From: Acidobacteriota bacterium
GTDB taxonomy: Bacteria; Acidobacteriota; Vicinamibacteria; Vicinamibacterales; UBA2999
DNA length: 64,000 nucleotides
Direction: 5' to 3'
NCBI GenBank assembly: GCA_030697165.1
Contig: JAUYQQ010000002.1
Coordinates: 257,193 to 321,192 of the forward strand
The notes under the pieces are model-generated. The model had not been told where the DNA came from. It searched no databases and saw nothing but the letters and a program-made list of their open reading frames with translations. Every line of letters begins with the position of its first letter. Positions within the stretch are counted from its first letter, which is position 1. The translations under genes were made by a program, and so were the position numbers. Below are positions 2,122 through 48,066 of the stretch, piece by piece.

Positions 2122-3021
2122 GTGAAACCTGTCGTTGCGCTGCTGGCGCTCGGCCTGGCCTCGTTTTCAACGGCCGAGCAAACAACGCCGCTCGGCGCGC
2201 TGCTCACGCGCGTGGCCGCAGAGTTCCCAGGGACCGCCGGCATCTGGGTGAAGCACCTCACCACCGGCGAGGCCGCGGGCGTGCGTGACGAAGAACTGCT
2301 GAACAGCGCCAGCGTCATCAAGATCCCGGTCCTGGTGCTGGCGTTCCAGATGGCCGAGCGCGGCGAGATCAAGCTGGACGAGCGCGTCACCGTCCGCAAA
2401 GAAGACATCCGCGGCGGCTCCGGCATCTTCCGACACCACGACGCCGGCCTGCAGCCGACCTTTCGCGACGTCCTGCTGCAGATGATCATCACCAGCGACA
2501 ACACCGCCACCGACCTGGCGATCGCCAGGGTGGGCGGCGTCGCGCGCGTCAACGCGTGGCTGAAGGAACAGGGGTACGGCGAGGGCTTGAAGCTGACGCA
2601 GACCACCGGCGAGCTGTTCGCGAAGTACAACGCGCTCAAGCCGACCGATGATCGTAATGGCAAGACCAATAGCGATCGATCGTACTGGCTGGGTGAAATC
2701 AGCGCCCGGGCGACCGGCCAGATGCTCGAGGCGATCGAGAAGAAGACCATCGCCTCGGCGGCCAGTTGCGACGAGATGTTGCGAATGCTGCGCGCCCAGC
2801 TGGCCGGGCAGCGCCGCCTGAATCACTATCTCTCGGTGCCCGTCGCGCACAAGACCGGCGATTTCCCGCCGGTGCTGGCCAACGATGTCGGCATCATCTA
2901 CGCGCGTTCCGGACCGATCGTCGTGTCGTTTCTGGGCAACGCGATTACCGGCAACTACGGCGAGGCCGAAGACCGCATCGGCCGCTTCGCGCAACAGCTA
3001 GTGGAGTATTTCGACAAATGA
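2122..3021 (+). CDS. class A beta-lactamase-like serine hydrolase, secreted
   Basis: Signal peptide; S-x-x-K (SVIK), SDN (ITSDNTA) and KTG (HKTGDF) motifs in the canonical order; GTG start. Confidence 0.8.
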   Translation: MKPVVALLALGLASFSTAEQTTPLGALLTRVAAEFPGTAGIWVKHLTTGEAAGVRDEELLNSASVIKIPVLVLAFQMAERGEIKLDERVTVRKEDIRGGSGIFRHHDAGLQPTFRDVLLQMIITSDNTATDLAIARVGGVARVNAWLKEQGYGEGLKLTQTTGELFAKYNALKPTDDRNGKTNSDRSYWLGEISARATGQMLEAIEKKTIASAASCDEMLRMLRAQLAGQRRLNHYLSVPVAHKTGDFPPVLANDVGIIYARSGPIVVSFLGNAITGNYGEAEDRIGRFAQQLVEYFDK

Positions 3022-5702
3022 GCAGGCGTCTTGTCTTTAGTGTTCTGGCTCTGTGTTCTCTGTGTCCTCTGTGGCTGACATCCGCGGCAGCGCAGGAACC
3101 GGCTCTGTGGCCTGGCGCGAAGTACGACCCGGCCATCCCGACCATCAAGCAGGTGCTGGGGCACGACCACGGCGAGGTAATCACGCCGCCGGAAGGCGTT
3201 GCCCAGTATCTGCAGGCGCTGCAGAAGGCCGCGCCCACCCGCTCGCGGCTGATCGAGTACGCGCGCAGTTGGGAAGGGCGTCCGTTGTGGCTGATGGTGA
3301 TCGGCAGCGCCGATCGCATTGCGAAGCTCGAACAGGTGAAGGCCGACCTGCAGCGCTTTGCCGATCCGCGCGGCGTGGCGCCGGCCGAATCCGACCGACT
3401 GGCCCGCGAGCTTCCGGTCGTGGTGTGGCTGGTGCACGGCGTGCACGGCAACGAAATCTCTTCGTCCGACGCGGCGCTGGCCGAGGCGTATCACCTGCTG
3501 GCGTCCCAGGGCGACGCCGGCGTGGACGCGGTCACGCGCGATGCGCTGGTGCTGATCGACCCGATGCAGAATCCGGATGGCCGCGCCCGGTTCGTGGCCC
3601 AGAACCTGCTGGGACGCGCCGCCACGCCCGATGCCGCGCCATACAGTGCCGAGCATGACGAGCCGTGGCCCGGCGGGCGCAGCAACCACTACCTGTTCGA
3701 CATGAACCGCGACTGGTTCGCCCAGTCGCAGCCCGAGACGCGCGGCCGCATCAAGATCGGGCTGGAGTACGTGCCGCAGGTCACCGTGGACCTGCACGAG
3801 ATGGGCGGCGACAACAGCTACTACTTCGCGCCGCCGGCCGACCCGCTGAATCCGCACATTACCAAGAGCCAGATCGCGGCGTGGGAACTGCTCGGTCGCG
3901 CCAACGGCGCCCGCTTCGACGAGCGCGGCTGGGCGTACTACATCCGCGAGGTCTACGACGCGTTCTATCCGGGCTACGGCGATTCGTGGCCGACCTTCCA
4001 GGGCTCGATCGGCATGACCTACGAACAAGCGTCGGCCCGCGGCCTGGCCTTTGCCCGGAGCGACGGCGACACGCTGACTTACCGCGACGGCGTGATGCAT
4101 CACTTCAACGCCGCCATCACTACCGCGATCACCGCGGCCCGCAACCGCGAGCGCCTGATGCGCGATTACCTCGAGTACCGGCGCAGCGCCGTGGCCGAGG
4201 GCGAGAAGGGGCCGGTACGCGAGTACCTGATCGTGCCGGGACACGATCCGTCGCGTGCCGAGCTGCTGGCCCGTAACCTGGCGACGCAGGGCATTGAAGT
4301 CCGCCGCGCCGAGGAACCGATCAAGCTGGCCTCGCGCACGTTGCCCGCCGGCACCTTCATCGTCTCCAACGCGCAGCCGACCGCGCGCATGGCGCGCAAC
4401 CTGCTGGATCCAAAAACCGACATGCCGGCCGAGTTCGTCCGCAAGCAGGAAGAGCGCCGCAAGATGCGCCTGAACGACCAGATCTACGACATCACCGCGT
4501 GGAACCTGCCGATGCTGTTCGACGTTGAGCTGGTCACCAGCCCCACCGCGGTGGCCGTCAAGACGACGGCCATGCCCTCGCAGTACGACGCGCCCATGCC
4601 GGCGCGGACGCTGGCTGCGGCCAAGGTCGGCTACCTGATGCCGTGGGGATCGGGCGCGGCGGCGGTCGCGGCTGACGCCTTGAAACAGGGCCTCAAGATC
4701 CGGAGCGTCGGCGGCGCGTTCACGCACAACGGCCGGCGCTACCCGATTGGCACCGCCTTCTTCCGCAACATCGAGAATCCGGCTGACCTCAACGCGAAGC
4801 TCACGGCGCTGGCGCGGCGTCACAGCGTCGACCTGGTGCCGATCGATTCATCGTGGGTGGACGAAGGAACCTCGCTCGGCAGCAACGACGTGCAGGCGCT
4901 GAAGGCGCCGAAAGTGCTGCTGGTCTGGGACACGCCCACGAGCACGCTGTCGGCCGGGTGGACGCGGTACACGCTCGAGCGGCGCTTCGGCCAGGACGTG
5001 ACCGCCGTGCGGACCAGCTCGCTCGGCCGTGCCAACTTCAACGACTACGACGTCATCGTGATGCCGTCGGGCAACTTTGCCGGCACCATCAACGAGGCCG
5101 TGCTGAACCGCGTGAAGGACTGGCTGCGCAGTGGCGGCACGCTGGTCACCATGGCCGAAGCCACCAGGTGGGCGACGGGCGCCAACGTCGGCCTGCTGGA
5201 GACGACGGGGCTGCTGAAAGACGGGCGGCCCGACATCCCGCCGCCCAGTGGCGCGGGTGCCTCAGGTGCCTCGGGTGCCTCAGGTGCTGCGCCCAAGCCG
5301 GGCGAGGCGTTCGATTACGACAAGGCGATCCAGCCCGATCGTGAGCGGCCGGCGTCGCAGCCCGGTGCCATCCTGCGCGTGACGCTCGACACCAATCACT
5401 GGCTGACGGCCGGCAGCGATGCCGAGACGCAGGTGATGATCGAAGGCAACCGGGTGTTCGCGCCGCTCAAGTTGAACAGCGGCCGCAACGTCGGCATCTA
5501 CGCGACCAAGGACCAGCTGATCGCCTCGGGCCTGATCTGGCCCGAAGCCCAGGACATCCTCGTGCAGAAGGCGTTCCTCATGCACCAGCCCTTCGGACAA
5601 GGCCACGTGATCGGCTTTGCCGAGGATCCGAACTATCGTGCGTTCACGGAATCCACGATGTTGTTGTTTATGAACGCGGTGTTGTTGGGGCCGGGATATT
5701 AG
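3018..5702 (+). CDS. M14-family zinc carboxypeptidase-like protein with a large C-terminal extension (894 aa)
   Basis: ATGA start/stop overlap with the upstream gene. Signal peptide MSRRLVFSVLALCSLCPLWLTSAAAQ. HxxE zinc motif (VHGVHGNEISS), NRDW, DLHEMG. The track ORF starting at 2766 includes a non-coding N-terminal extension. Confidence 0.85.
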   Translation: MSRRLVFSVLALCSLCPLWLTSAAAQEPALWPGAKYDPAIPTIKQVLGHDHGEVITPPEGVAQYLQALQKAAPTRSRLIEYARSWEGRPLWLMVIGSADRIAKLEQVKADLQRFADPRGVAPAESDRLARELPVVVWLVHGVHGNEISSSDAALAEAYHLLASQGDAGVDAVTRDALVLIDPMQNPDGRARFVAQNLLGRAATPDAAPYSAEHDEPWPGGRSNHYLFDMNRDWFAQSQPETRGRIKIGLEYVPQVTVDLHEMGGDNSYYFAPPADPLNPHITKSQIAAWELLGRANGARFDERGWAYYIREVYDAFYPGYGDSWPTFQGSIGMTYEQASARGLAFARSDGDTLTYRDGVMHHFNAAITTAITAARNRERLMRDYLEYRRSAVAEGEKGPVREYLIVPGHDPSRAELLARNLATQGIEVRRAEEPIKLASRTLPAGTFIVSNAQPTARMARNLLDPKTDMPAEFVRKQEERRKMRLNDQIYDITAWNLPMLFDVELVTSPTAVAVKTTAMPSQYDAPMPARTLAAAKVGYLMPWGSGAAAVAADALKQGLKIRSVGGAFTHNGRRYPIGTAFFRNIENPADLNAKLTALARRHSVDLVPIDSSWVDEGTSLGSNDVQALKAPKVLLVWDTPTSTLSAGWTRYTLERRFGQDVTAVRTSSLGRANFNDYDVIVMPSGNFAGTINEAVLNRVKDWLRSGGTLVTMAEATRWATGANVGLLETTGLLKDGRPDIPPPSGAGASGASGASGAAPKPGEAFDYDKAIQPDRERPASQPGAILRVTLDTNHWLTAGSDAETQVMIEGNRVFAPLKLNSGRNVGIYATKDQLIASGLIWPEAQDILVQKAFLMHQPFGQGHVIGFAEDPNYRAFTESTMLLFMNAVLLGPGY
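3049..3075 (+). repeat. three tandem 9-mers CTCTGTGTT / CTCTGTGTC / CTCTGTGGC inside the M14 signal-peptide coding region
   Basis: Direct reading. The 17 nt at 3059-3075 (TCTGTGTCCTCTGTGGC) are identical to 18033-18049 in the intergenic inverted repeat. Confidence 0.9.
5256..5291 (+). repeat. 4 x 9-bp in-frame repeat (GGTGCCTCR) encoding a GASGASGASGAA linker
   Basis: Direct reading, inside the M14 CDS. Confidence 0.9.
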
Positions 5703-7063: not shown

Positions 7064-7645
7064 TTGGACCCGGGCAGCGATCCGTCCGCGACCTCTACCA
7101 TCCAGCTCGTGGCCATGGCCAAGAGCGGCGACGCCGAGGCGTTGAGCCGGCTGCTCGACCGGTTTTTGCCCCGGCTGACGCGCTGGGCCTCGGGCCGGTT
7201 GCCGCGCTGGGTGCGTGACCTGTCAGATACGGACGACCTCGTGCAAGACACGCTGGTGCGAACCGTGCGCTCCCTGAATACCTTCGAAATGCGGGGTGAA
7301 GGCGCCTTCCAGGCGTACCTGCGGCAGGCGATCCTCAATCGCGTCAAAGACGAGGCGCGCGGCCGGGCGCGCCGTCCGCACCGCGATGAGCTCGATGACG
7401 ACCTCCTCTTCAGCGGCGCCAGCCCGCTCGAGGCGACCATTGGGCAACAGACGATGGAGCGCTACGAGCGCGCGCTGCGGTTGCTCGAACCCGAAGCGCG
7501 GGAGGCGGTCATCGCGCGTGTCGAGATGGGGTGTTCGTACCAGGAGATCGCCGACTTGATTGGTAAGCCGTCGCCCGACGCCGCCCGCATGACGGTCAGC
7601 CGCGCCATCCTGCGCCTCGCCCAGGTCATGAAGAATGAAGCCTGA
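7064..7645 (+). CDS. ECF-type sigma-70 family RNA polymerase sigma factor
   Basis: Region 2 (DDLVQDTLVRTV..FQAYLRQAILNRVKDEAR) and region 4 (REAVIARVEMGCSYQEIADLIGKPSPDAARMTVSRAILRL). Start uncertain: TTG 7064 or ATG 7115. Confidence 0.85.
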   Translation: MDPGSDPSATSTIQLVAMAKSGDAEALSRLLDRFLPRLTRWASGRLPRWVRDLSDTDDLVQDTLVRTVRSLNTFEMRGEGAFQAYLRQAILNRVKDEARGRARRPHRDELDDDLLFSGASPLEATIGQQTMERYERALRLLEPEAREAVIARVEMGCSYQEIADLIGKPSPDAARMTVSRAILRLAQVMKNEA

Positions 7646-10145
7646 CCCCTTGATCGACACCGCCGGCCGGGTCGCCGATTTTGCCGGCGTCGACTGGGAC
7701 GCGGCATTCGCCGGCCTCTCGGCCGACGACCGCGCGGTGGCCGATCAGCTCGTGGCCGTGTCCCAGGTCGCCGCGGCGCACCGCCAGCTGCACGACCTGT
7801 TGCCGGGCGATCCGTCGAGCCCGGCCGACGACCGGCCGGTCGCCTCGCGCTGGGGGCATCTCGAGCTGCTCGAGCAGGTGGGCCGCGGCTCGTTCGGCAT
7901 TGTCTACCGCGCCCTCGACACCCATCTTCATCGCGAGGTCGCGCTCAAGCTGTTCCCGCGGTCCTCGCAGCCGGCCACGGTGATCGAAGAGGGCCGGCGC
8001 CTGGCGCGGGTGCGGCACCCGAACGTCGTCACGGTGTTTGGCGCCGACGTGCACGAGGGCCTGCCGGGCATTTGGATGGAGTTCGTCCGCGGCAAGCGGC
8101 TGGACCTGCTGGTCAAGGAGCAGGGGCGCTTCGGCGCGCACGAGGCCGCCTTGATCGGCCGCGATTTGTGCCGCGCGCTGGCGGCCATTCACGCCGCCGG
8201 CCTGGTGCATCGGGATGTCAAGGCGCAGAACGTGATGCGCGAGGCGGGCGGCCGCATTGTCTTGATGGACCTCGGCGCCAGCTCGGTGTTGTTGCCGGGT
8301 GATGCCGTCGCCGATCAGACCGGCACGCCGCTCTACATGGCGCCCGAGGTGCTGGCCGGCACGCCAGCGACACCGGAGAGTGACGTCTACAGCCTTGGCG
8401 TCACCCTGTTTTATCTGGCGACCGGGCAGTTTCCGATCGCCGCCGCCTCGTTGGCGGCGCTGCGCCAGGCGCACCTCGATCGGAGCGGCCGGAACCTGCT
8501 CGATGTGCGAGCGGACCTGGCCCCGGAGTTCGTTCGCGCCGTCTCTCGCGCCGTCGAGCATGACCCGGCGCGGCGCACGCGAACGGCCGGCGAGTTCGAG
8601 GCTGACCTGTCGGACGTCCTCTCGACCAGCGTGGCGACCGCCGCCGACCCGGTGACGACCGGCCGGGGCTGGCGCGGCCTGGTGCTCTGGCTGGCCGCCG
8701 CGCTTGCCGTCGTGCTGAGCGGGGCGGCGATCACCCGGTTCACCTCGGTCGAACCAAGCGACACCTCCATCGCCGTCCTGCCAATCCTCAACCGGACCGG
8801 AAACCCGGACCTCGACTACCTGACCACCGGGATGACCGAACTGCTGATTTCCAACCTCGCCAGGATTCGCTCGTTGCGGGTGCCGTCCTACGACGCCGTC
8901 CGCAATCTGTCGCCAACGGCGGAGACCGACGGCCAGGCGTCCCGCCTCGGGGTCCGTCTCCTGCTGGCGGGATCGCTTGACCAGGTCAATGACGCGTTCC
9001 GGTTGAACGTGCGCCTGTCAGAGCCGGCCACCGGAAAGACCATCTGGGGCGACGAAATCATTCGCGATCGCGCCGGCATCATCAGTGCCCAAACCGAAAT
9101 TTCCAGGCTGGTGGCCACGCGCCTGATGCTGGATCTGTCGCCCGGCGAACGGCGCGCCCTGGCGGAACGTGTGCTCAATCCCGAGGCCCAGGACGCCTAC
9201 GTCCGCGGCCTGGTGGAGACCACCATTGCGTTTGACGATCGCCGGGCCGCATTGGCAGCTTCCCTGTTCAAGCGGGCGATCGAACTGGAGCCCACCTTTG
9301 CCGAGGCCTGGGCGGAACTGGCGTTGATCGAGCATCGACTCGCCGACCTGTCGGCGTTGCCGGAGCGGGCGCCCCGAATCGAGCACGCCCGGGAACTGGC
9401 CCGTCGGTCGCTCTCGCTTGACCCCGAACTGCCGGTCGGGTTGACCGCGTTGGCCACGGTCCAGTTCTACTTCGATTGGGACTTGCCGTTGGCGGAGGAA
9501 ACCTATCGGCAGGCGATTGCGTCCAGTCCGAGTTACGCACTGGCGCGCCAGCGGCTCGCGATGCTGCTGGCGGCGCAAGGACGATTCGCCGAGTCCATCG
9601 CCATGGGCCTGGAGGCGAGGGAGCGCGAGCCCCTGATCGCCAATCGCACGACCTCCGTGGCCACCCTGTATTACTATGCGCGCGATTTCGCGCAGGCGGA
9701 ATCTGAGATGCGACGGGCCCTGTCCCTCTCGCCCGGCTACGGGGTCGCCCATTTTGGGTTGGGACGGATCTACAGCGCCCGCGGCTTGTTTGATGCGGCG
9801 ATTGCCGAAATCCAGCAGGCGCTCGCGCAAAGCCGGAACGTCGGGTGGCTGTCCGAACTGGCGCGGGTCTACCTGTCGGCCGGACGCCAGGACGACGCCG
9901 GCGCCGTGATGCAGGAACTGGAAACCAGGCGGCGCGCGGGCGAGACCCCCGGGCCCGACAGCCTGGCGTACCTGGCCGTTGCCGAGGGGCGTTTCGACGA
10001 CGCCCTGGCGATCCTCGAAGAGGCGGTGGCCCAGCGTTCGACGAATGCGTTGTGGCTTGGAGTGGACCCTCGAGTCGATCCGTTGAGGACCGATCCGAGA
10101 TTCGGTGAACTGTTGCGCCGGGCAGGACTCGGCGCACAACCCTAG
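7635..10145 (+). CDS. Ser/Thr protein kinase with TM helix, TolB-N-like periplasmic module and TPR repeats
   Basis: GRGSFGIVYRA, EVALKL, HRDVKAQNV, DLGAS, GTPLYMAPE. TM segment WRGLVLWLAAALAVVLSGAAI, then SIAVLPILNRTGNPDLDYL and TPR-like repeats. Overlaps the sigma gene by 11 nt. Confidence 0.9.
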   Translation: MKPDPLIDTAGRVADFAGVDWDAAFAGLSADDRAVADQLVAVSQVAAAHRQLHDLLPGDPSSPADDRPVASRWGHLELLEQVGRGSFGIVYRALDTHLHREVALKLFPRSSQPATVIEEGRRLARVRHPNVVTVFGADVHEGLPGIWMEFVRGKRLDLLVKEQGRFGAHEAALIGRDLCRALAAIHAAGLVHRDVKAQNVMREAGGRIVLMDLGASSVLLPGDAVADQTGTPLYMAPEVLAGTPATPESDVYSLGVTLFYLATGQFPIAAASLAALRQAHLDRSGRNLLDVRADLAPEFVRAVSRAVEHDPARRTRTAGEFEADLSDVLSTSVATAADPVTTGRGWRGLVLWLAAALAVVLSGAAITRFTSVEPSDTSIAVLPILNRTGNPDLDYLTTGMTELLISNLARIRSLRVPSYDAVRNLSPTAETDGQASRLGVRLLLAGSLDQVNDAFRLNVRLSEPATGKTIWGDEIIRDRAGIISAQTEISRLVATRLMLDLSPGERRALAERVLNPEAQDAYVRGLVETTIAFDDRRAALAASLFKRAIELEPTFAEAWAELALIEHRLADLSALPERAPRIEHARELARRSLSLDPELPVGLTALATVQFYFDWDLPLAEETYRQAIASSPSYALARQRLAMLLAAQGRFAESIAMGLEAREREPLIANRTTSVATLYYYARDFAQAESEMRRALSLSPGYGVAHFGLGRIYSARGLFDAAIAEIQQALAQSRNVGWLSELARVYLSAGRQDDAGAVMQELETRRRAGETPGPDSLAYLAVAEGRFDDALAILEEAVAQRSTNALWLGVDPRVDPLRTDPRFGELLRRAGLGAQP

Positions 10146-10154
10146 GGAGCAGGC

Positions 10155-10439
10155 ATGGCAGAGAAGCCCGTTGAGATTGTCAGTGTTGACAACAAGGAAC
10201 TGCAGGACGAAATTCAGCTCCGCATCGATCGCCTCGAGCTCCTCCGGATGAAGCTGGAGTCCGGAAATCTCTCGCTCACGGTGAAGCCGGCCGATGGGCA
10301 TCCGGCGAACACGGAACATAACGAGGCCAACACATTGGCGAAGGTGGAGGCCGCGATCGCCAGGCTGACAGAGGCTCGTGAGGCCGTTAGAGCCACTTGT
10401 GGCTGGCAGGGCTTGTTCTGCCTGTTCGAAGTGGAGTGA
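10155..10439 (+). CDS. small acidic protein (94 aa) with C-terminal two-Cys hydrophobic tail; possible precursor peptide
   Basis: GGGAG Shine-Dalgarno 5 nt upstream of the ATG, 9 nt after the kinase stop. Ends ..RATCGWQGLFCLFEVE. Its stop overlaps a GTG start (GTGA). I recognise no family. Confidence 0.6.
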   Translation: MAEKPVEIVSVDNKELQDEIQLRIDRLELLRMKLESGNLSLTVKPADGHPANTEHNEANTLAKVEAAIARLTEAREAVRATCGWQGLFCLFEVE

Positions 10440-11536
10440 CCGACTTGGAGCGCAATGGCGTGGACGAACGCTTTCGGCGTTCGTCCACGTTGACGCTGCA
10501 CTGGGAGGGGGCAGGGCTTCAGGCGACCAATTGGATGACTCACAGTGTGACGCCTCTGCCGACGCTCTGCGTGCCGATGCTGGAAGCGTTGACGGATTGG
10601 CGATCGGCGCCAGAGGTGCTCGCCGGCTGCCCGGAACTGGGCTCCCTCGAATCGACCACGCAACTGCTGACGCTGCTCGCCGATGCCTCGATCCTCGATC
10701 GCACCACCGATCCGATCCGGGATCTCAGCGTCTGGGCGCCCTGGAGTCCGGAGGCCGTGGCGTTCCACTTCGCGACCAAGGATGGCTCGTATCCAGACGA
10801 CCTGATCGCGTACGAGCAGGTGCTGCGGGCCAAGGCGGTGGTCGAGCCACCACCACCCGCGTGCAAGAAGATCGCCGGGAGTCGAACTCGCCTGGCATCA
10901 AAGGACCTGGCCACGCCGGTCACGAAGACCCTGCATGAACGCCGGACGTGGCGCAACTTCGGCGCCGGCAGCCTTCAGCGCGAGGCGCTCGAAGCACTGT
11001 TGTTCCATACGTGGGGCGTGCAGGCGTGGGGCAACGTGCCGGGGCAAAGCCGCGTGCCGCTGAAGACCTCGCCTTCGGGCGGTGCGCGGCACTCCATCGA
11101 GGCGTACGTCGCGGTTCTGGACGTCAACGGGCTCGAGCCTGGCTGGTATCACTACGATGCGGAAGCGCATGAACTGGTGGGTGTGCGCAGCGGATGTCAG
11201 CCCGCCGAACTGGTGCATTGCCTGGCCGGTCAGAACTACTTTCGTGGGGCGGCTGCGGCGATCGTCATGTGCCCGGTGTTTGCCCGCGCCATGTGGCGTT
11301 ACCCGTTCAGCCGCGTGTATCGGGCCGTGTTGATCGAGGCCGGCCATCTTGGGCAGTCCTTTTGTCTGCTGGCGACAGAGATGGGCCTGGCGCCCTTTTG
11401 CACCATGGCGTTTCGCGAGGCGGAGATCGAATCCATACTGGGCCTCGATGGCGTGACCGAATGTCCCATCTATGTTGTTGGCGTTGGCATCCAGGCCGCC
11501 GACCGGCGCCGGCACCCGGGCGGAATGTCGGAGTGA
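10436..11536 (+). CDS. SagB/ThcOx-type FMN dehydrogenase (nitroreductase superfamily) with ~165-aa N-terminal extension
   Basis: RRTWRNF, SPSGGARHSIEAYVAVLDVNGLEPGWYHYD and IEAGHLGQSFCL motifs. Start is ambiguous: GTG 10436 overlapping the upstream stop, TTG 10445 with GGAG 8 nt upstream, or TTG 10397 as in the track. Confidence 0.8.
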   Translation: MTDLERNGVDERFRRSSTLTLHWEGAGLQATNWMTHSVTPLPTLCVPMLEALTDWRSAPEVLAGCPELGSLESTTQLLTLLADASILDRTTDPIRDLSVWAPWSPEAVAFHFATKDGSYPDDLIAYEQVLRAKAVVEPPPPACKKIAGSRTRLASKDLATPVTKTLHERRTWRNFGAGSLQREALEALLFHTWGVQAWGNVPGQSRVPLKTSPSGGARHSIEAYVAVLDVNGLEPGWYHYDAEAHELVGVRSGCQPAELVHCLAGQNYFRGAAAAIVMCPVFARAMWRYPFSRVYRAVLIEAGHLGQSFCLLATEMGLAPFCTMAFREAEIESILGLDGVTECPIYVVGVGIQAADRRRHPGGMSE

Positions 11537-11542
11537 GGTGAG

Positions 11543-12415
11543 ATGGCCATTCGCGTTGAGCTGATCCTGTTCTCAGGCATTCGCAATCCGGCGTGGATGC
11601 TGAATACCGATGACCTGCCGTTATTCAAGACGGCGCTGGGGCAGCTACAGGGCGGGGCCTTCGACCTCAACGTGTCGGTCGAGTTCGCGCCGCCCGCGTC
11701 GGGCTATCGTGGATTCGATGTACGCGGCAGTGGCGAGGATAGTGAGATCTCGCTTCACGTCTGGAGCGCCCGCGCCTTGTCGGGAACAAGCCTGTTCTGG
11801 GACACTGCGGGATTACTTGAATCCTGGCTGTACGGCACCGCGCCGCTCGCCATCAAGATGTCGCTCGGCCTGACATTCGCCCAATTGTCGAGTACCCCAG
11901 CGGCGACCCACACCATCGCCGGCATCGCAAGCGGCCCGGCGGAAATCGTCTGCCCTGACGCTCCCACGTACCCTGTTTCGCCGAGTTTCTGGGATACCCA
12001 CAGAAAGAGCAACAACTGCTACAACTACGCGAACGACGTCGTGTTTGGGCAGTCCATGACGGGTGCCATGCCTGGGGGGTTGACGACGTGGGCGGACGCG
12101 GCTGAAATGCGCCGCGCCGCCGAATACGACAACCTGGTCTGGGACGGCATGCGCCCGCCAACGGTGTGCACGGGTGACGCAAACACCCATCTGCTCGCGA
12201 TCTGCCTGCGATCAAAAATGGGCATTTACCAGGACTTTCACTGTCTCCGGCTCGATGATTCCGGGGTGTGGTCCCAGAAGGATGGCCCCGATCCGGTCGA
12301 TCAAGTCGATGGCAGTAGACTCGTCATCCGCAACATCCGCAGCGCCGTATTCAACCAACCGATGACGCTGGTGGGATTCTTCTGGTCCCCGCCCGCCCGC
12401 AGCCTCAGGCCATAG
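11543..12415 (+). CDS. hypothetical two-domain protein (290 aa); C-terminal half has a papain-fold-like Cys/His signature
   Basis: GAGGTG Shine-Dalgarno, 6 nt after the SagB-type stop. NNCYNYAND (Cys159), THLLAICL (His216), DFHCLRLDD (His233, Asp238). The N-terminal ~150 aa are unassigned. Confidence 0.7.
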   Translation: MAIRVELILFSGIRNPAWMLNTDDLPLFKTALGQLQGGAFDLNVSVEFAPPASGYRGFDVRGSGEDSEISLHVWSARALSGTSLFWDTAGLLESWLYGTAPLAIKMSLGLTFAQLSSTPAATHTIAGIASGPAEIVCPDAPTYPVSPSFWDTHRKSNNCYNYANDVVFGQSMTGAMPGGLTTWADAAEMRRAAEYDNLVWDGMRPPTVCTGDANTHLLAICLRSKMGIYQDFHCLRLDDSGVWSQKDGPDPVDQVDGSRLVIRNIRSAVFNQPMTLVGFFWSPPARSLRP

Positions 12416-13340
12416 CGGCCGCCTGCGCCGGTGCGTTACCTGGGTCGTGACGGTATTCGCGGGTGCCTAGGCGTGGCCGAAGTGGGCATGCCGGCGCCCG
12501 GCGCCGGTGCGCATCCTGGCCGGTGGCGCACGGCGTCGTCGCGAAGAGCCGCGAGTCGAGGCCATCGGCCACCACCTCGCGCGCCTCGCCACGCGAGACA
12601 CCGGCGCGCTCGAGCTCGCCGCGCAGCTGGCTGAGAATGCGCTCGTAGGTCCGATACAGGCGCTTTTGATCCTGTCCCACCGTGAATGCGATCTGGCTGA
12701 CCGGCTGGCCGGTGGCGTAGCGCAACATCAGCAGCCGGCGGTCGTCGGCGCTCAACTGGCGCAGCGTGTCGAGCAGCGCGCGCGACACCGTCGCCGAGCG
12801 CGCCTTCCTGGCGTTGGCCAGTGCCTGCTCCTCCGGATTAGGTTCCTTCGATGCCGTCTCCAGCACGAGCTCGAGCGGTTCTTCGCGAACGCGCCGGCCG
12901 CTGGCCGGGTGTCCACCGGCGCGCAGCCGGGCGACCAGCGCCGCCACGCCGGCGTGGCCGCGCGTGGCCACCGCGTGAACCGGATAGCCATCGCGGAGGA
13001 TTCGTCGCTCGGCCTCGACCACTTCCGCACCGGCGCGCCGCGCGTCGGTGGACGCGCGCCACCGCCCCCAACGGCTATTGCGGTAGTCCAACAGGATCCG
13101 CTTGATCACGATTCGGATGAAGATCGGAAACGTGCAGTCGCCGCGGAATGCCGCCACCTTGCGGCTGTCGGCTTCGAGCAGCTTCATCCAGGCATACGAC
13201 TCGAAATCGCCGCGATCCTGGACCGGCAGGCGCGCGCTCCAGGCGACGGCGCGAACGGTGGCTTGAATCAGTTCGAATTGGGACTCAACCAGGCTGCGGC
13301 CTGGTACGGCTGGGCAAGTGACCGACGGTTGGGGGGCCAT
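12405..13340 (-). CDS. sigma-70 family (ECF-like) sigma factor with long inter-region linker and C-terminal tail
   Basis: Region 2-like DFESYAWMKLLE..FIRIVIKRILLDYRNSRWGRW; region 4 LSADDRRLLMLRYATGQPVSQIAFTVGQDQKRLYRTYERIL. GGAGAG Shine-Dalgarno before ATG 13340. The 3' end overlaps the convergent gene by 11 bp. Confidence 0.75.
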   Translation of the reverse strand: MAPQPSVTCPAVPGRSLVESQFELIQATVRAVAWSARLPVQDRGDFESYAWMKLLEADSRKVAAFRGDCTFPIFIRIVIKRILLDYRNSRWGRWRASTDARRAGAEVVEAERRILRDGYPVHAVATRGHAGVAALVARLRAGGHPASGRRVREEPLELVLETASKEPNPEEQALANARKARSATVSRALLDTLRQLSADDRRLLMLRYATGQPVSQIAFTVGQDQKRLYRTYERILSQLRGELERAGVSRGEAREVVADGLDSRLFATTPCATGQDAHRRRAPACPLRPRLGTREYRHDPGNAPAQAAAMA

Positions 13341-13406
13341 CTGAACTCTCCTCACCCCCCAAAACGCCGAACCGCGACGAACCGAACAGTTGGTGCTTGC
13401 CTGAGG

Positions 13407-13615: not shown

Positions 13616-14248
13616 ATGGACGCACCGGTCCCGCGGTTTCCGCGATACCCTACTGCCGCCATGCGTGTCCTGCCACAGACGCCGCTCGATTGGGTGCTGC
13701 TCGCGGTTGCCGCCGCCACCGGTGTGATCATTGCGGTGGCGTTGCAGGATTTCTTTCTCGACTCGCGAGTCAATAGCCCCAGAATTCGCGCCTTGCAGGA
13801 CGTCGGCGTCGGCTTGGCCGTGATCCACGTCGGCGGCATTCTTCTGCTCGGATCGGTGAGCCCGCGGTGGGCCGCGGCCGGTATTGCCATGTATATGGGC
13901 GCGACGCTGTTGTTCCTGGCCGCCCTCGAATCGGCGCGCCGCGTGAAGTTGCCGCGCACTCTGGTCGACGAGCCCATGCCAAGGGCGCTCATCACCACGG
14001 GTCCCTTCGCCGTCGTGCGGCACCCGTTCTATATCGCGTACTCGCTGGCGTGGCTGGCCGCGCCGGTCGCGACCCACGGCCCGGTCATCACGATTTCGGG
14101 CCTGCTGGCGGTGGGCCTGTATGTGTTCGCGGCGCGGCGCGAGGAACGCCGGCTCGAAGCGCACTTTGGCGACGCCTATCGAGTCTACCGCGCGAAGGCA
14201 GGCGGGGTGCTGCCGTCGATTCCAGGCCTGGTCCGTTTCTTCCGCTGA
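13616..14248 (+). CDS. ICMT/PEMT-family membrane methyltransferase
   Basis: Multi-TM; ITTGPFAVVRHPFYIAYSLAWLA..REERRLEAHFGDAYRVYR. Start uncertain (13616 or 13661). Confidence 0.75.
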   Translation: MDAPVPRFPRYPTAAMRVLPQTPLDWVLLAVAAATGVIIAVALQDFFLDSRVNSPRIRALQDVGVGLAVIHVGGILLLGSVSPRWAAAGIAMYMGATLLFLAALESARRVKLPRTLVDEPMPRALITTGPFAVVRHPFYIAYSLAWLAAPVATHGPVITISGLLAVGLYVFAARREERRLEAHFGDAYRVYRAKAGGVLPSIPGLVRFFR

Positions 14249-14323: not shown

Positions 14324-14896
14324 GTGTCAGCACAATTTCCCGATACCCTGCTCGAGTGGGCCCTGGCCGTCGTCGGCGGCTCCACCCTGATCGTGTTTGC
14401 CGTCGCGCTGCAGAATTTCTTTGTGCAACCGCCGACGCTCTCGCGGCCCCAGCGCTTGTTCCAGGACCTGAGCGTGTTGGTTGGCCTCACCCATGGCTTC
14501 GCCCTGCTCGTGCTGAACACCGCCACCGACCTGTGGGCGGGCGTGGGCATCGGCATGTATTCCGTGTCGCTGGCGCTGTTCCTGAGCGCGATCGAGGCGG
14601 CGCGGCGCACGCCGATGACGCGCACGTTCGTCTACGAGCCCAAGTGCGACATTATTCTCCAGACCGGTCCGTACCGGGTGATTCGCCACCCCATCTACCT
14701 CTCGTACGCGCTGGCCTGGTTAGCGGCGCCCGTGGCGATGCACAGCGTGGCGCTTGGGGTGACCGCCGTGATCATGATCGGGTGCTATGTCGCGTCGGCG
14801 CGAGAGGAAGAGCGCCGGCTCGCGACCGGGAAGCGCGCCGCCGAGTACGAGCAGTACCGCGCCCGCACCTGGCGGATGATTCCCTTCCTGTTTTAG
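14324..14896 (+). CDS. ICMT/PEMT-family membrane methyltransferase (paralog of the preceding gene)
   Basis: LQTGPYRVIRHPIYLSYALAWLA..REEERRL..EYEQYRARTWRMIPF. Shares the ALQ(D/N)FF N-terminal helix with its neighbour. Confidence 0.8.
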   Translation: MSAQFPDTLLEWALAVVGGSTLIVFAVALQNFFVQPPTLSRPQRLFQDLSVLVGLTHGFALLVLNTATDLWAGVGIGMYSVSLALFLSAIEAARRTPMTRTFVYEPKCDIILQTGPYRVIRHPIYLSYALAWLAAPVAMHSVALGVTAVIMIGCYVASAREEERRLATGKRAAEYEQYRARTWRMIPFLF

Positions 14897-18052: not shown

Positions 18053-19243
18053 CTACTTGGCGTCTAGCTGCTCGATGGTGGCCGTCGAAGGCGGCCGGGT
18101 TTTCTGCAGCCGCGCCGCGACGGCCTCGGCACCCTTCATCACCCGCAGCACGTTCAGGCCGAGCAGCTTCTTGAGGTCGTCGTCCGAGTAGCCGCGCCTG
18201 AGCAGCTCCGCGGTGAGATCCGGGTACTTCGAGACGTCCTCGAGGCCGAGGATGACCGAGCTGATGCCGTCGAAGTCGCCGCCGATGCCCACGTGATCCA
18301 TACCGGCGACCTTGCGAATGTGATCGATGTGGTCGGCCACCTGCGCGAGCGTGGCCCGCGGTGCGGGGCCCTCGGCCCTTTTTGCGTCGTGATCGGCCAC
18401 CGCCTGCGAGATGAACTGGGGCACGAATGTCACCATCACCACGCCCCCGTTCTTGGCGGTCAGCTGCAGCACGTTGTCGGGCACGTTGCGCGGCACGTTG
18501 CACAGCGCCTTGGCCGACGAGTGCGAGAAGATCACCGGCGCCTCGCTCACCCGCAGGGCATCTTCCATGGTCCCGGGCGACACGTGGCTCAGGTCCACCA
18601 GCATCCCCATCCGGTTCATCTCGCGGATCACCTCCTCGCCGAACTTCGACAGGCCGCCGAGCACCGGCGTGTCGGTGCTGGCGTCGGCCCAGGGCAGGTT
18701 GGCGGAGTGGGTGATGGTCATGTATCGGGCGCCGAGCGCGTAGAACATGCGCAGCGTCGCCAGCGAGTTGTCGATCGAGTGCCCGCCTTCCATGCCGATC
18801 AGCGAGCCGATGCGGCCGGCCTTGAACGAGCGCTCGATGTCGGCCGCGGTATACGCCATCTCGAAGGTCTCGGGCCAGCGCTTCGTCATGCGGTGCACGA
18901 TGTCGATCTGCTCGAGCGTGGCCCGCACCGCTTCCTTGCCCTGCATGCTCGACGGCACGTACACCGACCAGAATTGCCCGCCGACCCCGCCTTCTCGCAG
19001 GCGCGGGATATCGGTATGCAACGACGGCACCGGCTTGGAGATCTCGGCCTTGCTGAAGTCGCGCCCGGGATCGAGTCCGCGCAGCGCCCAGGGGTAATCG
19101 TTGTGGCCGTCGATGAGCGGCACCTGCTTGTGCAAGGCCCTGGCCCGTGCCAGGAGATCTCCCTGGGCCGAGGTGTGGCTGGTGGCCATGACGACGACCG
19201 CGAGCAGAGCGACGAAGGGCGAGTATCTGGGCATAGACGCCAT
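18053..19243 (-). CDS. membrane dipeptidase (peptidase family M19)
   Basis: [47 protein letters not shown]. Confidence 0.9.
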
Positions 19244-27431: not shown

Positions 27432-29258
27432 TCACTTCCTGGCTGCCGGCGTGAGCGAGGTTTCGCGCTTCTCGCCGCCGCGCATGTAAACGACCTTCGC
27501 CGGCTGGCCGATCTTGAGCAACTCCAGCGCGAAGGTGTAGTCGTAGATGTTGGTGATCGACTGCCCGGCAATCTCGATCACGACGTCGCCCTTGGCCAGC
27601 CCGGCCTGCTCCGCGGGTCCGCCGCCGATCACGCCGCCCAGCAACAGGCCCTTCACGTCGGACGCGTAGTCGGGGATGGTGCCGGTGAACAACCGCATGC
27701 CCGCGCGCCCGCCGGTCTCGGTCTTCCGTTCGACCTTGGTGAACAGCGGCACTTCCGCCGAGTCCATCAGCCGCCGCACGATCCCGCCCGCCAGCTCGCC
27801 GACCCGGACCAGGTCCTCGTAGTTGATCTTGTCGGCGGTGTCGCTGGGCCGGTGGTACTCCGGGTGCGCGCCCGTGAAGAAGGTGAGGCACGCCACGCCG
27901 GCGGTGTTGAAGCTGCCAACGTCGGTCGGTTGGTAGGGATCTTCCTGCAGCACCAGGTCGAACCCGGCCGCGATGTTCGCCTGCTCGAGCAGCCGCGGCC
28001 ACATCGCGCTGGTGCCGGTGGCCTGCACCGTCAGCTTGTTGTCGGCCACGCGGCCGACCATGTCGAAGTTGAGATACGCCGCGTGGGCGTCGAGCGGCAC
28101 GGGCGGCGTGGTCACGTAGGCATTCGACCCGAGCAGGCCGAGCTCTTCGCCCGACCAGAAGGCGAGCAGCAGGTGGCGCTTGCGCGGCTGCTGGCTGAAC
28201 GCCTCGCCGATGGCGAGCACCGTCGCCGTGCCCGAGGCGTTGTCGTCGGCACCGTGGTGCACCTGGTTCACTTCGTCCTTGCTGGCGAGCGAATTGCCGG
28301 CGCCGCCGCGGCCGAGATGATCGTAGTGCGCGCCGACCGCGACCCACGGCTTGGCGACGCCGGTCACCGGCGCGGTCGCGGGCAGGTACGCGACCACGTT
28401 GTTGCCGGTCTGCTGCTCGCGAATCACGTTGGCCTTGAGCGTCACCGTGATGCCGGGAATGGCGAAGCCCGACACGTGCGGGTTGCCGCTGTCGAATTCC
28501 TTCTGCACCGCGTCGAGCGACTTGCCCGCCGCCGTCATGATCGGCGCAATGGCCTCGCCGCTGACGCTCGCGGCGGCAATGCCCGAGCCGGCAATCGCCG
28601 TGTCGAAGCTCATGGGCACGACCGCGCCGGCATTAGGCGAGCGCGGGCCGGTGACGACGATCATGCCCTTGGCGCCGCGCTGGCGCGCCGCCTGGGCCTT
28701 GTAGCGCAGGTCCGAGTAGCGCGCCAGGATCGCGCGGGTCTTCTGGTCCGCGTCTTCCGGGAAGTAACGGAGCACGACCACGATCTTGTCCTTGACCTCG
28801 AGGCCCACGTAGCTGTCGTAGCCGAAGTTCTGCGCTTCGGGCACGACCAGGCCATAGCCGGCAAACACGACGCGTCCCGACGCCTCGGCGTTGTCAGAAA
28901 ACGACAGCGCCTGCACGCTGGCCGCGCCCGTGACCGTCTGCGCCGTCCCGCCGTCGTTGGTGATGGTGAGCGTGGTGCCACCGTCCTTCGAGCCGGCGGT
29001 GAACGTGAACGGGATGCGGAAATCGGTGAGCCCGGGCAGCGGCTGGGCGCCCATGCGCTTCAGCTCGCTGATGAGGTAGTCGCCGGCCAGCTTCTCGCCG
29101 GGCGAACCGGTGAAGCGGCCCTCGAACTTCGGCGAGGCCAGCGTTTCAACATGCACCTGGGTGCGCGACTTGACGGCGGTGGCCGTCTGCGCGTGGGGCG
29201 CGGTCCCGAGAACGCCTGTGGCCCAGACCAGAACGACAACTTGAATGGCTTTTCGCAT
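27432..29258 (-). CDS. M28-family aminopeptidase with PA domain and C-terminal PDZ domain
   Basis: Signal peptide MRKAIQVVVLVWATGVLG; HYDHLG, GADDNASGTATVLAI, SGEELGLLGS; C-terminal PDZ-like GDVVIEIAGQSI. Confidence 0.85.
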   Translation of the reverse strand: MRKAIQVVVLVWATGVLGTAPHAQTATAVKSRTQVHVETLASPKFEGRFTGSPGEKLAGDYLISELKRMGAQPLPGLTDFRIPFTFTAGSKDGGTTLTITNDGGTAQTVTGAASVQALSFSDNAEASGRVVFAGYGLVVPEAQNFGYDSYVGLEVKDKIVVVLRYFPEDADQKTRAILARYSDLRYKAQAARQRGAKGMIVVTGPRSPNAGAVVPMSFDTAIAGSGIAAASVSGEAIAPIMTAAGKSLDAVQKEFDSGNPHVSGFAIPGITVTLKANVIREQQTGNNVVAYLPATAPVTGVAKPWVAVGAHYDHLGRGGAGNSLASKDEVNQVHHGADDNASGTATVLAIGEAFSQQPRKRHLLLAFWSGEELGLLGSNAYVTTPPVPLDAHAAYLNFDMVGRVADNKLTVQATGTSAMWPRLLEQANIAAGFDLVLQEDPYQPTDVGSFNTAGVACLTFFTGAHPEYHRPSDTADKINYEDLVRVGELAGGIVRRLMDSAEVPLFTKVERKTETGGRAGMRLFTGTIPDYASDVKGLLLGGVIGGGPAEQAGLAKGDVVIEIAGQSITNIYDYTFALELLKIGQPAKVVYMRGGEKRETSLTPAARK

Positions 29259-29302
29259 GATGCTTCTCCGTCCGCCGGGACTAAAGTCCCGGCCTTCTGG
29301 CA

Positions 29303-30448
29303 CTACTTCTTCGCTGGAGGTGTCCGCGGCGGCGCGGCTTTCAACGCTGCCATCGCCGCCTGGTGATTCCACTGTGCGAGATAAATCTGCCCGGCCGAGC
29401 CCGTGCCGCCGCCGCGGCTCGACGTGAACGCGATTTGTGTGCCGTCCGGCGACGGCACCGGCAGCCCGTCGAAGCCGTCGGTATAGGTAATGCGCACCGG
29501 CTCCCTGGCGCCGTCCTTGTCGACGATGAAGACCTCGAAGTTCTCGAAGCCCAGCTTGTTCGAGGCGAACATGAAGTACTCGCCTGACGGATGCTCGTAC
29601 GGCGCCCAACTCATGGCGCCGAAGTCGGTGATCTGCTTCTTGTCGCTGCCGTCCATCTTCATCGTCCAGACATTGGCCACCAGCCCGTTCTCCTCGAAAT
29701 GGCGCCACACGATGCGGCCATCCCTGGTGAAGAACGTGCCGCCGTCGTAGCCGGCCCAGTCGGTCAGCCGCTTCTGCTCCGAACCGTCGGCCTTCATGAC
29801 GTAGACCTCGGCGAAGTACGAGGCGTCGAGCTCGAGCTGCTTCTGTTCGGCGGCCGACAGTGTGCGGTTGTAGGCATCGCGCATCGACGAGAACACGATC
29901 CACTGGCCATCGGGCGAGTAGCCGCCTTCGGCGTCGTAGCCCTTGGCCGTGGTCAGTTGCTTCATGGCGCCGGTCTTCTCGTCATAGGCGAAGATGTCCA
30001 TCTCGGGGTCGTAATCCCACGCATACCGCCGCTGCTTGCCCGAGGCGCGGAAGTCGAGCTCGTCCTTCTGATACTGCAGCGACTTGGGATCGAGGTGCGT
30101 CGAGCCGAACATGATTTCGCTGCTGCCGGGCCGGAAGAACGCGCAGGTCGTCTTGCCCACGCCGGGCGAGATGCGCTTGGTCTCGCCGGTCGCGAAGTCG
30201 AGCACGAAAATCTGGTAGAACGGGTTGGCCGGGTCGCGTTCGCTCTGGAACACCAGCTTCTTGCCGTCGGGCGACCAGTAGCCCTCGCCGGCGCGCTTGC
30301 CGTCCACGGTCAGGCGGCGTACCCGGCTCAGGAACGACCGCTCTTCCGACGGCGCCTGGCTGGCTACCGGCACGGTCGACCACAGCAATACGGCCGCCGC
30401 GCACACGGATACCGTGGAAATCACTCTATTCGTCAAGGCGTTTGGCAT
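29303..30448 (-). CDS. TolB-like PD40 beta-propeller protein, secreted
   Basis: Repeated SPDG motifs (YWSPDGKKLVFQS, GYSPDGQWIVFSS, PSPDGTQIAFTSS). Confidence 0.8.
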   Translation of the reverse strand: MPNALTNRVISTVSVCAAAVLLWSTVPVASQAPSEERSFLSRVRRLTVDGKRAGEGYWSPDGKKLVFQSERDPANPFYQIFVLDFATGETKRISPGVGKTTCAFFRPGSSEIMFGSTHLDPKSLQYQKDELDFRASGKQRRYAWDYDPEMDIFAYDEKTGAMKQLTTAKGYDAEGGYSPDGQWIVFSSMRDAYNRTLSAAEQKQLELDASYFAEVYVMKADGSEQKRLTDWAGYDGGTFFTRDGRIVWRHFEENGLVANVWTMKMDGSDKKQITDFGAMSWAPYEHPSGEYFMFASNKLGFENFEVFIVDKDGAREPVRITYTDGFDGLPVPSPDGTQIAFTSSRGGGTGSAGQIYLAQWNHQAAMAALKAAPPRTPPAKK

Positions 30449-48047: not shown

Positions 48048-48054
48048 GCCGTTG

Positions 48055-48060
48055 TACTAT
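48055..48060 (+). promoter_or_regulatory. -10-like TACTAT, 6 nt upstream of the S9 peptidase ATG 48067 (leaderless candidate)
   Basis: Direct reading. Confidence 0.4.
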
Positions 48061-48066
48061 TCGTCG

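Follow-up and report, generated by a model that had tools for sequence, protein, structure and literature searches.

Within a 64,000-nt stretch of DNA from the metagenome-assembled genome of an Acidobacteriota bacterium (contig JAUYQQ010000002.1; the whole stretch is called the window here), three open reading frames (ORFs) lie directly behind a sigma factor gene and a kinase gene and could form, together with them, a small operon for the maturation of a peptide. ORF1 encodes a candidate precursor with two Cys residues near its C-terminus, ORF2 a SagB-type dehydrogenase and ORF3 a protein with a putative papain-like domain. The five genes are the following:

7064..7645, forward strand: extracytoplasmic function (ECF)-type sigma factor, the first gene of the conserved module (Pfam Sigma70_r2, r4_2 and Sigma70_ECF); its 3' end overlaps the start of the kinase gene.
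7635..10145, forward strand: receptor Ser/Thr kinase (Pfam Pkinase, 1.2e-41, plus tetratricopeptide repeats, TPRs).
10155..10439, forward strand: ORF1, candidate precursor peptide of 94 aa, ATG start at 10155 (NCBI MDP3716620.1).
10436..11536, forward strand: ORF2, SagB/ThcOx-type flavin mononucleotide (FMN) dehydrogenase of 366 aa, GTG start at 10436 (NCBI MDP3716621.1).
11543..12415, forward strand: ORF3, two-domain protein of 290 aa with a putative papain-like C-terminal domain (NCBI MDP3716622.1).

The junctions between these genes are tight. The kinase stop (10145) and the ATG of ORF1 (10155) are separated by a gap of 9 nt containing the sequence GGGAG, ORF1 and ORF2 are joined by a GTGA stop/start overlap at 10436–10439, and ORF3 follows ORF2 after 6 nt and is preceded by GAGGTG. 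ORF2 has an alternative TTG start at 10397, but GTG 10436 is favoured by the alignments of homologues and by the gene calls in two related loci, L170 and L001 (L-numbers designate homologous loci that were compared with the window; L170 is a close relative). An earlier note, made from the letters of this DNA, had described the three same-strand ORFs with these spacings and ribosome-binding sites, as well as the tail of ORF1, the SagB/ThcOx hallmarks of ORF2 and the Cys and His motifs of ORF3, and all of them are present in the sequence.

SagB neighbourhoods were gathered by exact look-up and a metagenome scan (89 loci), and all their neighbouring ORFs were clustered. The kinase family occurred in 72 of the 89 loci, nearly always on the same strand and directly upstream, which bears out the link between the sigma/kinase pair and the cassette. 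A sigma factor of the window's cluster was found upstream of the kinase in 15–16 of the 33 loci that had more than 3.5 kb of upstream DNA each, and the gene order of the cassette recurs in L170, L001, L003, L010 and L011. Additionally, 63 of the 75 SagB loci with enough upstream DNA contain a same-strand ORF of 45–170 aa ending at the SagB start, when only ORFs with a Cys in the last 28 residues are counted. Judged from sequence and gene order, the conserved core is thus formed by an ECF sigma factor, a receptor Ser/Thr kinase with TPRs, a peptide of 60–100 aa and a SagB-type enzyme, and it is common in Acidobacteria. The earlier note had proposed an undescribed cassette of three genes; the coupling of ORF1 to a SagB gene without YcaO stands, but the core is this widespread four-gene module, to which ORF3 is an accessory.

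Families of YcaO, radical SAM and lanthipeptide enzymes were not found among the recurrent neighbours of the 89 SagB loci. Likewise, the 20 largest of the window's remaining ORFs, which are ordinary metabolic genes, peptidases and transporters, gave no Pfam match to YcaO, ThiF, radical SAM or lanthipeptide enzymes, and the absence of YcaO, radical SAM and lanthipeptide enzymes noted earlier for the entire 64 kb holds for these ORFs; of the six window ORFs outside this assignment, four had no Pfam match and two were not scanned.

The kinase consists of an N-terminal kinase domain, a single hydrophobic transmembrane stretch and a sensor region that is TolB_N-like and contains TPRs. A biosynthetic role for it, as a stand-in for YcaO or as a LanL-type kinase, was ruled out as the main explanation because of its receptor topology, its outward TPR sensor, the ECF sigma factor that usually precedes it and the lack of conserved Ser/Thr in the peptide tails. 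The sensor regions of cassette-linked kinases (from the window, L006, L007, L109, L137 and L155) matched model TIGR04510 with 31–62 bits, for a cutoff of 400. TIGR04510, a cyclase with TPRs, belongs with TIGR04509, a precursor, and TIGR04511, or SagB_rel_DH_2, to a predicted peptide modification system that is purely computational. It seems that one sensor architecture has been coupled to differing outputs beside SagB-like genes. The same sensor regions also match C-terminal regions of the HilA/CadC type. The literature on TIGR04509–11, on standalone SagB, on nitroreductases beside ECF sigma factors and kinases and on the nitroreductase superfamily yielded no account of a sigma/kinase/peptide/SagB module.

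ORF1 comprises an acidic, helical leader (residues 1–81) followed by a tail of 13 residues, CGWQGLFCLFEVE (10398–10436). The C-terminal segment RATCGWQGLFCLFEVE carries Cys82 and Cys89, and the aromatic residues of the tail are W84, F88 and F91. A search of 5.8 billion clusters returned three matches, one of them the window's own protein, and ORF1 had no model match in scans of Pfam, NCBIfam and PADLOC; a precursor of the NHLP or Nif11 type was ruled out, since no model matched. The same small gene occupies the same position in L170, L171 and L001. In an alignment of ORF1 with P0011, P0012 and the peptide of L001, the leader segment VDNK.L.D.IQ.R.DRLE near the N-terminus and the tail CGWQG..C.F were invariant, and the linker between them was variable and contained indels. 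The ratio of nonsynonymous to synonymous substitution rates (dN/dS) of ORF1 was 0.21–0.23 against two closer relatives, with similar values for ORF2 and ORF3, indicating that ORF1 is under purifying selection and is a real gene.

Across the SagB loci, the candidate precursors share an architecture, not a sequence. Their leaders are helical and rich in Lys, Ala and Glu, and the first Cys of the tail lies at a median distance of 13 residues from the C-terminus. The tails vary by lineage, with examples such as SCCTTQNCNFAYFD, MCPQQVAALFFDFD, LGSCKKILDIIWPW, PPACRKYNVG and IEGTCVPGFDIPF. In a set of 60 candidate precursors, Cys made up 7.2% of the tails versus 0.6% of the leaders, and Phe, Tyr and Trp together 10.3% versus 2.5%. 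At least one aromatic residue was present in 54 of the 60 tails, compared to 27% of leader windows, and the motif [FYW][DE] in 19 of the 60 tails, compared to 2.3% of leader windows. Many tails contain a single Cys, which rules out an intramolecular disulfide as the conserved modification. Ten diverse candidate precursors did not match any NCBIfam precursor family, including the NHLP and Nif11 models and, even at E values up to 10, TIGR04509. In one SagB cassette, that of L009, the place of ORF3 is taken by a gene for a rhodanese-domain protein of 298 aa (8152–9048 of that locus) and the candidate precursor has the tail SCCTTQSCNFEYFE, which hints at sulfur chemistry on a Cys-rich tail.

The product of ORF2 contains the motifs RRTWRNF, SPSGGARHSIEAYV, GLEPGWYHYD and IEAGHLGQ and is organised into a winged helix resembling a recognition element (RRE) of peptides that are ribosomally synthesised and modified after translation (RiPPs; residues ca. 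12–89), a conserved linker (W..W.PEA..FHF.T) and a nitroreductase fold (ca. 165–355). It passes the SagB domain model TIGR03605 (104.2 bits, cutoff 78.4), although its top model match is TIGR04511, 'putative peptide maturation dehydrogenase', with 173.8 bits, below the cutoff of 240; this last alignment is limited to residues 148–369, the catalytic half, and leaves the N-terminal 147 residues unaligned. In an AlphaFold 2 model of ORF2 (mean predicted confidence, pLDDT, of 83), residues 12–89 fold as three beta strands followed by three alpha helices, the topology of an RRE, which supports the N-terminal extension being a peptide-binding, RRE-like domain. A Foldseek comparison of the model with the Protein Data Bank (PDB) gave ThcOx as the top match (E 3.5e-23, 374 columns, full length). 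The description of ORF2 as a SagB-type enzyme with an N-terminal extension, given from the letters in the earlier note, is thus confirmed and the extension acquires a predicted fold. There are at least 1280 homologues of ORF2 that are full-length, including the N-terminal extension, and those bearing a name are designated SagB-type dehydrogenases and come from Acidobacteriota or Vicinamibacterales.

PflD is a fusion of MNIO and nitroreductase domains from the Pseudomonas pfl/pos RiPP clusters, which have no YcaO (Ouyang et al., bioRxiv 2025, van der Donk laboratory; PMC12636437). Its nitroreductase domain generates Z-dehydrophenylalanine, with a loss of 2 Da, at Phe7-Asp8 of the precursor in a YcaO-independent manner, and His73 is the iron ligand of its MNIO part (PMC12636437). 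According to its authors, nitroreductases without YcaO association are rare and uncharacterised, and other dehydro amino acids are possible (PMC12636437). Using the PflD protein sequence from the supplement of that preprint (PMC12636437), BLASTP aligned ORF2 with PflD residues 383–647 (32% identity over 267 residues, E 2e-29); this alignment lies outside the MNIO part and reaches the conserved linker and the last helix of the RRE. The phmmer scores of ORF2 were 100.8 bits for PflD, 44.1 for ThcOx and 38.7 for McbC, and profiles of the ORF2 subfamily gave 170 bits for PflD (local build, 60 homologues) and 95.5 for ThcOx (alignment A4, 30 sequences). At the sequence level, therefore, the nearest characterised relative of ORF2 is the nitroreductase domain of PflD, and not an azoline oxidase, and the homology extending over the linker and last RRE helix groups ORF2 with the YcaO-independent branch forming dehydro amino acids.

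Two features of the catalytic half set the ORF2 subfamily apart. W287 and Y289 are invariant and R288 is found in at least 90% of its members, aligning with FWKY of ThcOx and WKY of PflD; this W-R288-Y289 site is the position of the Lys-Tyr dyad of azoline oxidases. In addition, the subfamily has an invariant TSPSGGARH in place of the PSGGALY/GGLYP of ThcOx and 3eo7.

ORF3 could not be assigned to any characterised family: it had no match in Pfam, NCBIfam, PADLOC or the PDB sequences, its relatives gave no Pfam or PADLOC match even at E values up to 10, and its family profile found no PDB sequence. Membership of a known anti-phage system was discarded, since there was no PADLOC match. The protein is divided into an N-terminal domain (ca. 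1–125; FSG..NP.W, GYRGF and D..E.WL) and a putative papain-like C-terminal domain (ca. 145–290). The latter contains the motifs NNCYNYAND (Cys159), THLLAICL (His216) and DFHCLRLDD (His233 and Asp238), and its putative papain-like residues are Cys159, His233 and Asp238/His245/Asp256. A word-based search detected nine relatives; searching 1.84 billion representatives with a family profile produced 5077 at E values up to 1e-3 and 157 at up to 1e-30, from Acidobacteriota, Proteobacteria, Bacteroidota, Planctomycetota, Nitrospira, Actinomycetota and archaea. Among 40 diverse members, C159, Y160, G178, D196, H233, R236, K246 and D256 were invariant and N157, N158, D231, D238, W243, S244 and H245 nearly so. 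The pattern of a papain fold that the earlier note had read into ORF3 is hence retained for Cys159 and His233, but not for His216, which is not conserved.

In the AlphaFold 2 model of ORF3 (pLDDT 77.5), Cys159 opens a helix (159–163) and His233 lies in a strand (229–237). Foldseek matches of this model in the PDB were not significant (best E 0.13), and the weak list was made up almost wholly of papain-like folds: vasohibin, USPs, the C39 domain of PCAT1, MOA and RavD. Comparison with BFVD gave significant matches only to uncharacterised giant-virus proteins (F2Y2U4, 6.5e-6; M1HB16, 5e-4; a Hokovirus protein, 1e-3). Altogether, ORF3 is probably a papain-like cysteine hydrolase, as far as its predicted structure and conserved residues can tell.

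Genes of the ORF3 family have a characteristic neighbour of their own, with which they make up a two-gene unit in many phyla (L012–L089). In ca. 55 of 80 genome loci, a gene of 109–160 aa situated directly downstream encodes a stand-alone copy of the N-terminal domain, which keeps FSGRPNP.W, GYRGF and D...E.WL; examples of such pairs are L027 (2482–3360 and 3363–3731) and L017 (6001–6846 and 6943–7308). No other neighbour was conserved in the 80 loci. L061 and L077 contain arrays of several enzyme/N-domain pairs.

The association of ORF3 with SagB looks different from its two sides. A SagB gene is situated upstream in 2 of the 80 ORF3-family genome loci, and ORF3 is present in ca. 5 of the ca. 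56 SagB-ascertained loci with enough downstream DNA (ca. 9%), from which we consider ORF3 an accessory. Nevertheless, in a tree of 91 family members including 13 independent SagB-linked loci, 12 of these 13 fell in one pure clade; L170 and the near-identical L005 are additional to, and outside, this tree. In the 13 loci as well as in L170 and L005, the ORF3 and SagB genes are coupled, either overlapping or with a short gap between them. The SagB-linked proteins have lost the stand-alone N-domain partner and maintain the translational coupling, by overlap or 6 nt, at identities of 29–79%. Of the linked ORF3 in L006, the catalytic domain is all that is left, whereas in L003 the gene is present twice in tandem.

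Nucleotide comparison of the window with L170 also isolates the three ORFs. Identity is ca. 95% in the sigma and kinase genes and 80–88% in ORF1–ORF3, with a break exactly at the start of ORF1 and a partial recovery after ORF3, and the synonymous divergence (dS) is 2–4 times higher in the cassette. Moreover, the GC content at third codon positions (GC3) of ORF1–ORF3 is 0.74–0.77, versus 0.85–0.91 in the flanks. The drop in identity and the low GC3 suggest block replacement by recombination. With the identity break, raised dS and GC3 taken together, ORF1–ORF3 behave as one exchangeable block, which supports a functional link of ORF3 to ORF1 and ORF2.

We propose, with a probability of roughly one half, that the locus is a RiPP-like maturation operon under sigma/kinase control, in which ORF2 dehydrogenates the tail of ORF1 and ORF3 trims or tailors the product. 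The five genes are probably transcribed as one messenger, given their common orientation and junctions that range between an overlap of 4 nt and a gap of 9 nt, and the sigma factor would control their expression. ORF1 would be a precursor of 94 aa whose long leader, helical and charged, is bound by the RRE-like domain of ORF2, and the flavin enzyme would remove two hydrogens from the 13-residue tail in an FMN-dependent reaction. Given the homology with PflD and the enrichment of tails in aromatic residues, the reaction most to be expected is the alpha,beta-dehydrogenation of a residue in the tail, and its product would most likely be an alpha,beta-dehydro aromatic residue at F88, F91 or W84. 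An aromatic residue of the tail appears at least as likely a target as Cys. Still, the near-universal Cys of the tails invites the hypothesis of thiol addition to the dehydro residue, and we speculate that Cys82 or Cys89 could form a thioether ring in this way. ORF3 might act as a lineage-specific, accessory Cys-His hydrolase of papain-like type, whose N-terminal domain would be regulatory or a pro-domain, responsible for leader removal, trimming of the acidic tail or Gln deamidation. The minimal RiPP-like pathway imagined in the earlier note thus gains from the conservation of ORF1, the YcaO-less SagB and the RRE-like domain; however, ORF3 turns out to be an add-on and the chemistry has a precedent in PflD.

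A number of observations weigh against this proposal. The substrate residue and product of ORF2 are predictions; with 32% identity, transferring the specificity of PflD is not justified, and both the MNIO fusion and the NHLP-type leader of PflD are missing at this locus. A scan of the locus for promoters and terminators gave no signal above chance, and neither an exporter nor a leader peptidase is conserved across the family. The fold assigned to ORF3 leans on the non-significant PDB matches, and its absence from ca. 90% of cassettes means that ORF3 is not essential to the class. Lastly, the window covers 64 kb of a contig of 346 kb, and a YcaO could be encoded elsewhere in the genome.

This last point is the premise of a classical azole pathway, in which a distant YcaO, with or without an E1-like partner, would make thiazolines from Cys82 and Cys89 for ORF2 to oxidise to thiazoles. 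ORF2 passing TIGR03605 and folding like ThcOx, the dyad position being kept as Arg-Tyr and Cys being the most constant residue of the tails are all compatible with this pathway. We consider it very unlikely, however, in view of the lack of YcaO among the recurrent neighbours of the 89 loci and in the window's 20 largest remaining ORFs, of a score of ORF2 to PflD that is about twice that to ThcOx or McbC, and of the invariant PSGGARH that replaces the PSGGALY/GGLYP signature. The presence of the kinase in 72 of 89 loci, often together with an ECF sigma factor, could instead mean that the locus does not make a natural product. In that case ORF1 would belong to the sigma/kinase circuit as a small cytoplasmic protein with a regulatory or redox-sensing role, such as modulating the ECF sigma factor or the kinase, and ORF2 would tune signalling by setting the redox state of the Cys residues of ORF1 or by modifying ORF1 in some other way; the long leaders (60–80 aa), charged and coiled-coil-like, and the lack of a conserved exporter or leader peptidase fit such a role. 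Yet the precursors keep the architecture of the leader and have a tail that is hypervariable from lineage to lineage, as is usual in RiPP precursors, ORF2 has an RRE-like domain and homology to a proven RiPP tailoring domain, and the cassette has diverged as one unit and independently of the kinase; we thus regard a purely regulatory ORF1 as unlikely.

ORF3 could also be a passenger, that is, a self-contained cysteine hydrolase, zymogen- or toxin-like, that does not act on ORF1. The family mostly lives without SagB (78 of 80 genome loci), has as its only conserved neighbour the stand-alone N-domain copy and is found in just ca. 5 of the ca. 56 SagB-ascertained loci, but its SagB-linked members are concentrated in a single clade (12 of 13) that has lost that partner, their coupling to SagB by overlap or 6 nt persists at 29–79% identity, and ORF3 diverges with ORF1 and ORF2 as one block, so a passenger role seems doubtful. 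Returning to the maturation operon, its most ambitious version would join all its parts: a large, unrecognised acidobacterial class of modified peptides made without YcaO or a radical SAM enzyme, where a stand-alone, RRE-fused SagB dehydrogenates an aromatic residue of the short tail and Cys closes a thioether macrocycle, the TPR sensor of the kinase and the ECF sigma factor sense the product in an autoinducing loop, and ORF3 is the founding example of a family of more than 5000 clusters. Taken as a whole, this combination is distinctly improbable; if true, it would provide a thioether macrocycle of a new kind and make ORF3 the first functional example of a model-less hydrolase family.

Downstream of the cassette, the window contains the following genes:

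12405..13355, reverse strand: sigma-70-like gene, 316 aa (TIGR02937, 6.9e-15); convergent with ORF3, whose stop it overlaps by 11 nt.
13616..14248, forward strand: PEMT/ICMT-family membrane methyltransferase (Pfam PEMT 5.3e-8, ICMT 4.8e-4); this copy is absent from L170.
14324..14896, forward strand: second PEMT/ICMT-family membrane methyltransferase (Pfam PEMT 5.2e-7, ICMT 3e-4).

Homologues of the sigma-70-like gene are located at the same position in L002, L006, L007 and L008; L170 has a reverse gene of 278 aa there. The genes that come next in L002 and L007 encode another sigma-like protein and a zf-HC2/CHAT protein of 1114 aa. PEMT genes follow the cassette in seven loci, five of them with ORF3 (the window, L001, L003, L010 and L011) and two without (L090 and L096), and a PEMT gene is likewise found downstream of the cassette in L170. 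The PEMT/ICMT-family genes are possible accessory tailoring enzymes: the tails in these loci end in aromatic plus acidic residues, making carboxyl methylation conceivable, and we speculate that the methyltransferases could esterify the acidic tail. A CaaX-like scheme of cleavage after Cys by ORF3 and carboxyl methylation by the ICMT-like enzyme is only an idea, since PEMT genes occur with and without ORF3. Beyond the methyltransferases there are a PadR gene and a MacB-type ABC permease gene. The flanks of the cassette are also unusually rich in peptidases, of families M14, M19, M28 (twice), M81 and S9 (twice), listed jointly for these seven genes:

2766–5702, 18053–19243, 27432–29903, 39819–41399, 48052–50343, 55840–57216 and 58132–60204: flanking peptidase genes.

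Part of this context, with M14, beta-lactamase-like and M19 genes, is found in synteny in at least one of the loci L001, L007 and L009.

To our knowledge, SagB-type flavoenzymes are understood almost only as YcaO-dependent azoline oxidases, and we know of almost no characterised RiPPs from Acidobacteria. A stand-alone, RRE-fused relative that has hundreds to thousands of homologues and abounds in soil Acidobacteria, paired with a receptor kinase and a hypervariable peptide rich in Cys and aromatic residues, makes the locus a directly testable route to new peptide chemistry and possibly links peptide modification to ECF-sigma/Ser-Thr-kinase signalling. The ORF3 family, very large, without a model in the libraries searched and with a recurring enzyme plus N-domain pair, merits a family definition of its own. 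In the libraries and literature searched there is no description of the precursor class, of its link to a kinase and a sigma factor, of what the Cys does or of the ORF3 family.

Known systems resemble parts of this locus. SpeB of Streptococcus pyogenes is a papain-like protease zymogen accompanied by Spi, the product of a prodomain-like inhibitor gene. The ORF3 family, with an N-domain plus Cys/His enzyme followed by a small gene homologous to the N-domain, follows a similar logic. ORF3 differs in that no similarity to SpeB or to a MEROPS clan was detectable in its sequence or significant in its fold and in that it has no signal peptide, and its SagB-linked clade has no stand-alone partner. 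The system of TIGR04509–11 likewise combines a YcaO-less SagB relative of the same length, described by a profile of 380 positions, with a small peptide and with a signalling protein whose sensor region is similar; however, the scores obtained here are below the cutoffs (173.8 of 240 for the dehydrogenase and 31–62 of 400 for the sensor) or absent for the peptide, and the output is a kinase and an ECF sigma factor, not a cyclase. The azoline oxidases SagB, McbC, ThcOx and BcerB share with ORF2 the fold, the FMN-binding motifs and the dyad position, and ThcOx also has RRE-like N-terminal domains. They differ in their YcaO/E1-like partner, in a Lys-Tyr instead of an Arg-Tyr dyad and in PSGGALY instead of PSGGARH.

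The closest likeness is that with PflD. The earlier note knew of no described system with this composition, but a YcaO-less SagB-type enzyme beside a candidate precursor has precedents in the predicted TIGR04511 enzyme and the characterised PflD domain. PflD is fused to an MNIO, works with HEXXH-enzyme and GNAT partners on a precursor with an NHLP-type leader and involves no Cys. ORF2, in contrast, is a stand-alone enzyme with an RRE-like domain, its precursor is unrelated and has Cys as hallmark, and its partners are the kinase, the sigma factor and ORF3; no HEXXH enzyme was a neighbour in the 89 SagB loci, and the only domains of ORF2 are the RRE-like and nitroreductase ones. Both are, nevertheless, flavin domains of the SagB/nitroreductase type at RiPP or RiPP-like loci without YcaO, with RRT.R, TSPSGG, YHY, W[KR]Y and DAGHL.Q.F as common motifs. 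The core on which PflD works lies at the C-terminus, after a long leader, and its site joins an aromatic residue to an acidic one (Phe7-Asp8); the tail of ORF1 contains L-F-E. YcaO-independent SagB-type chemistry has, with PflD, one characterised precedent.

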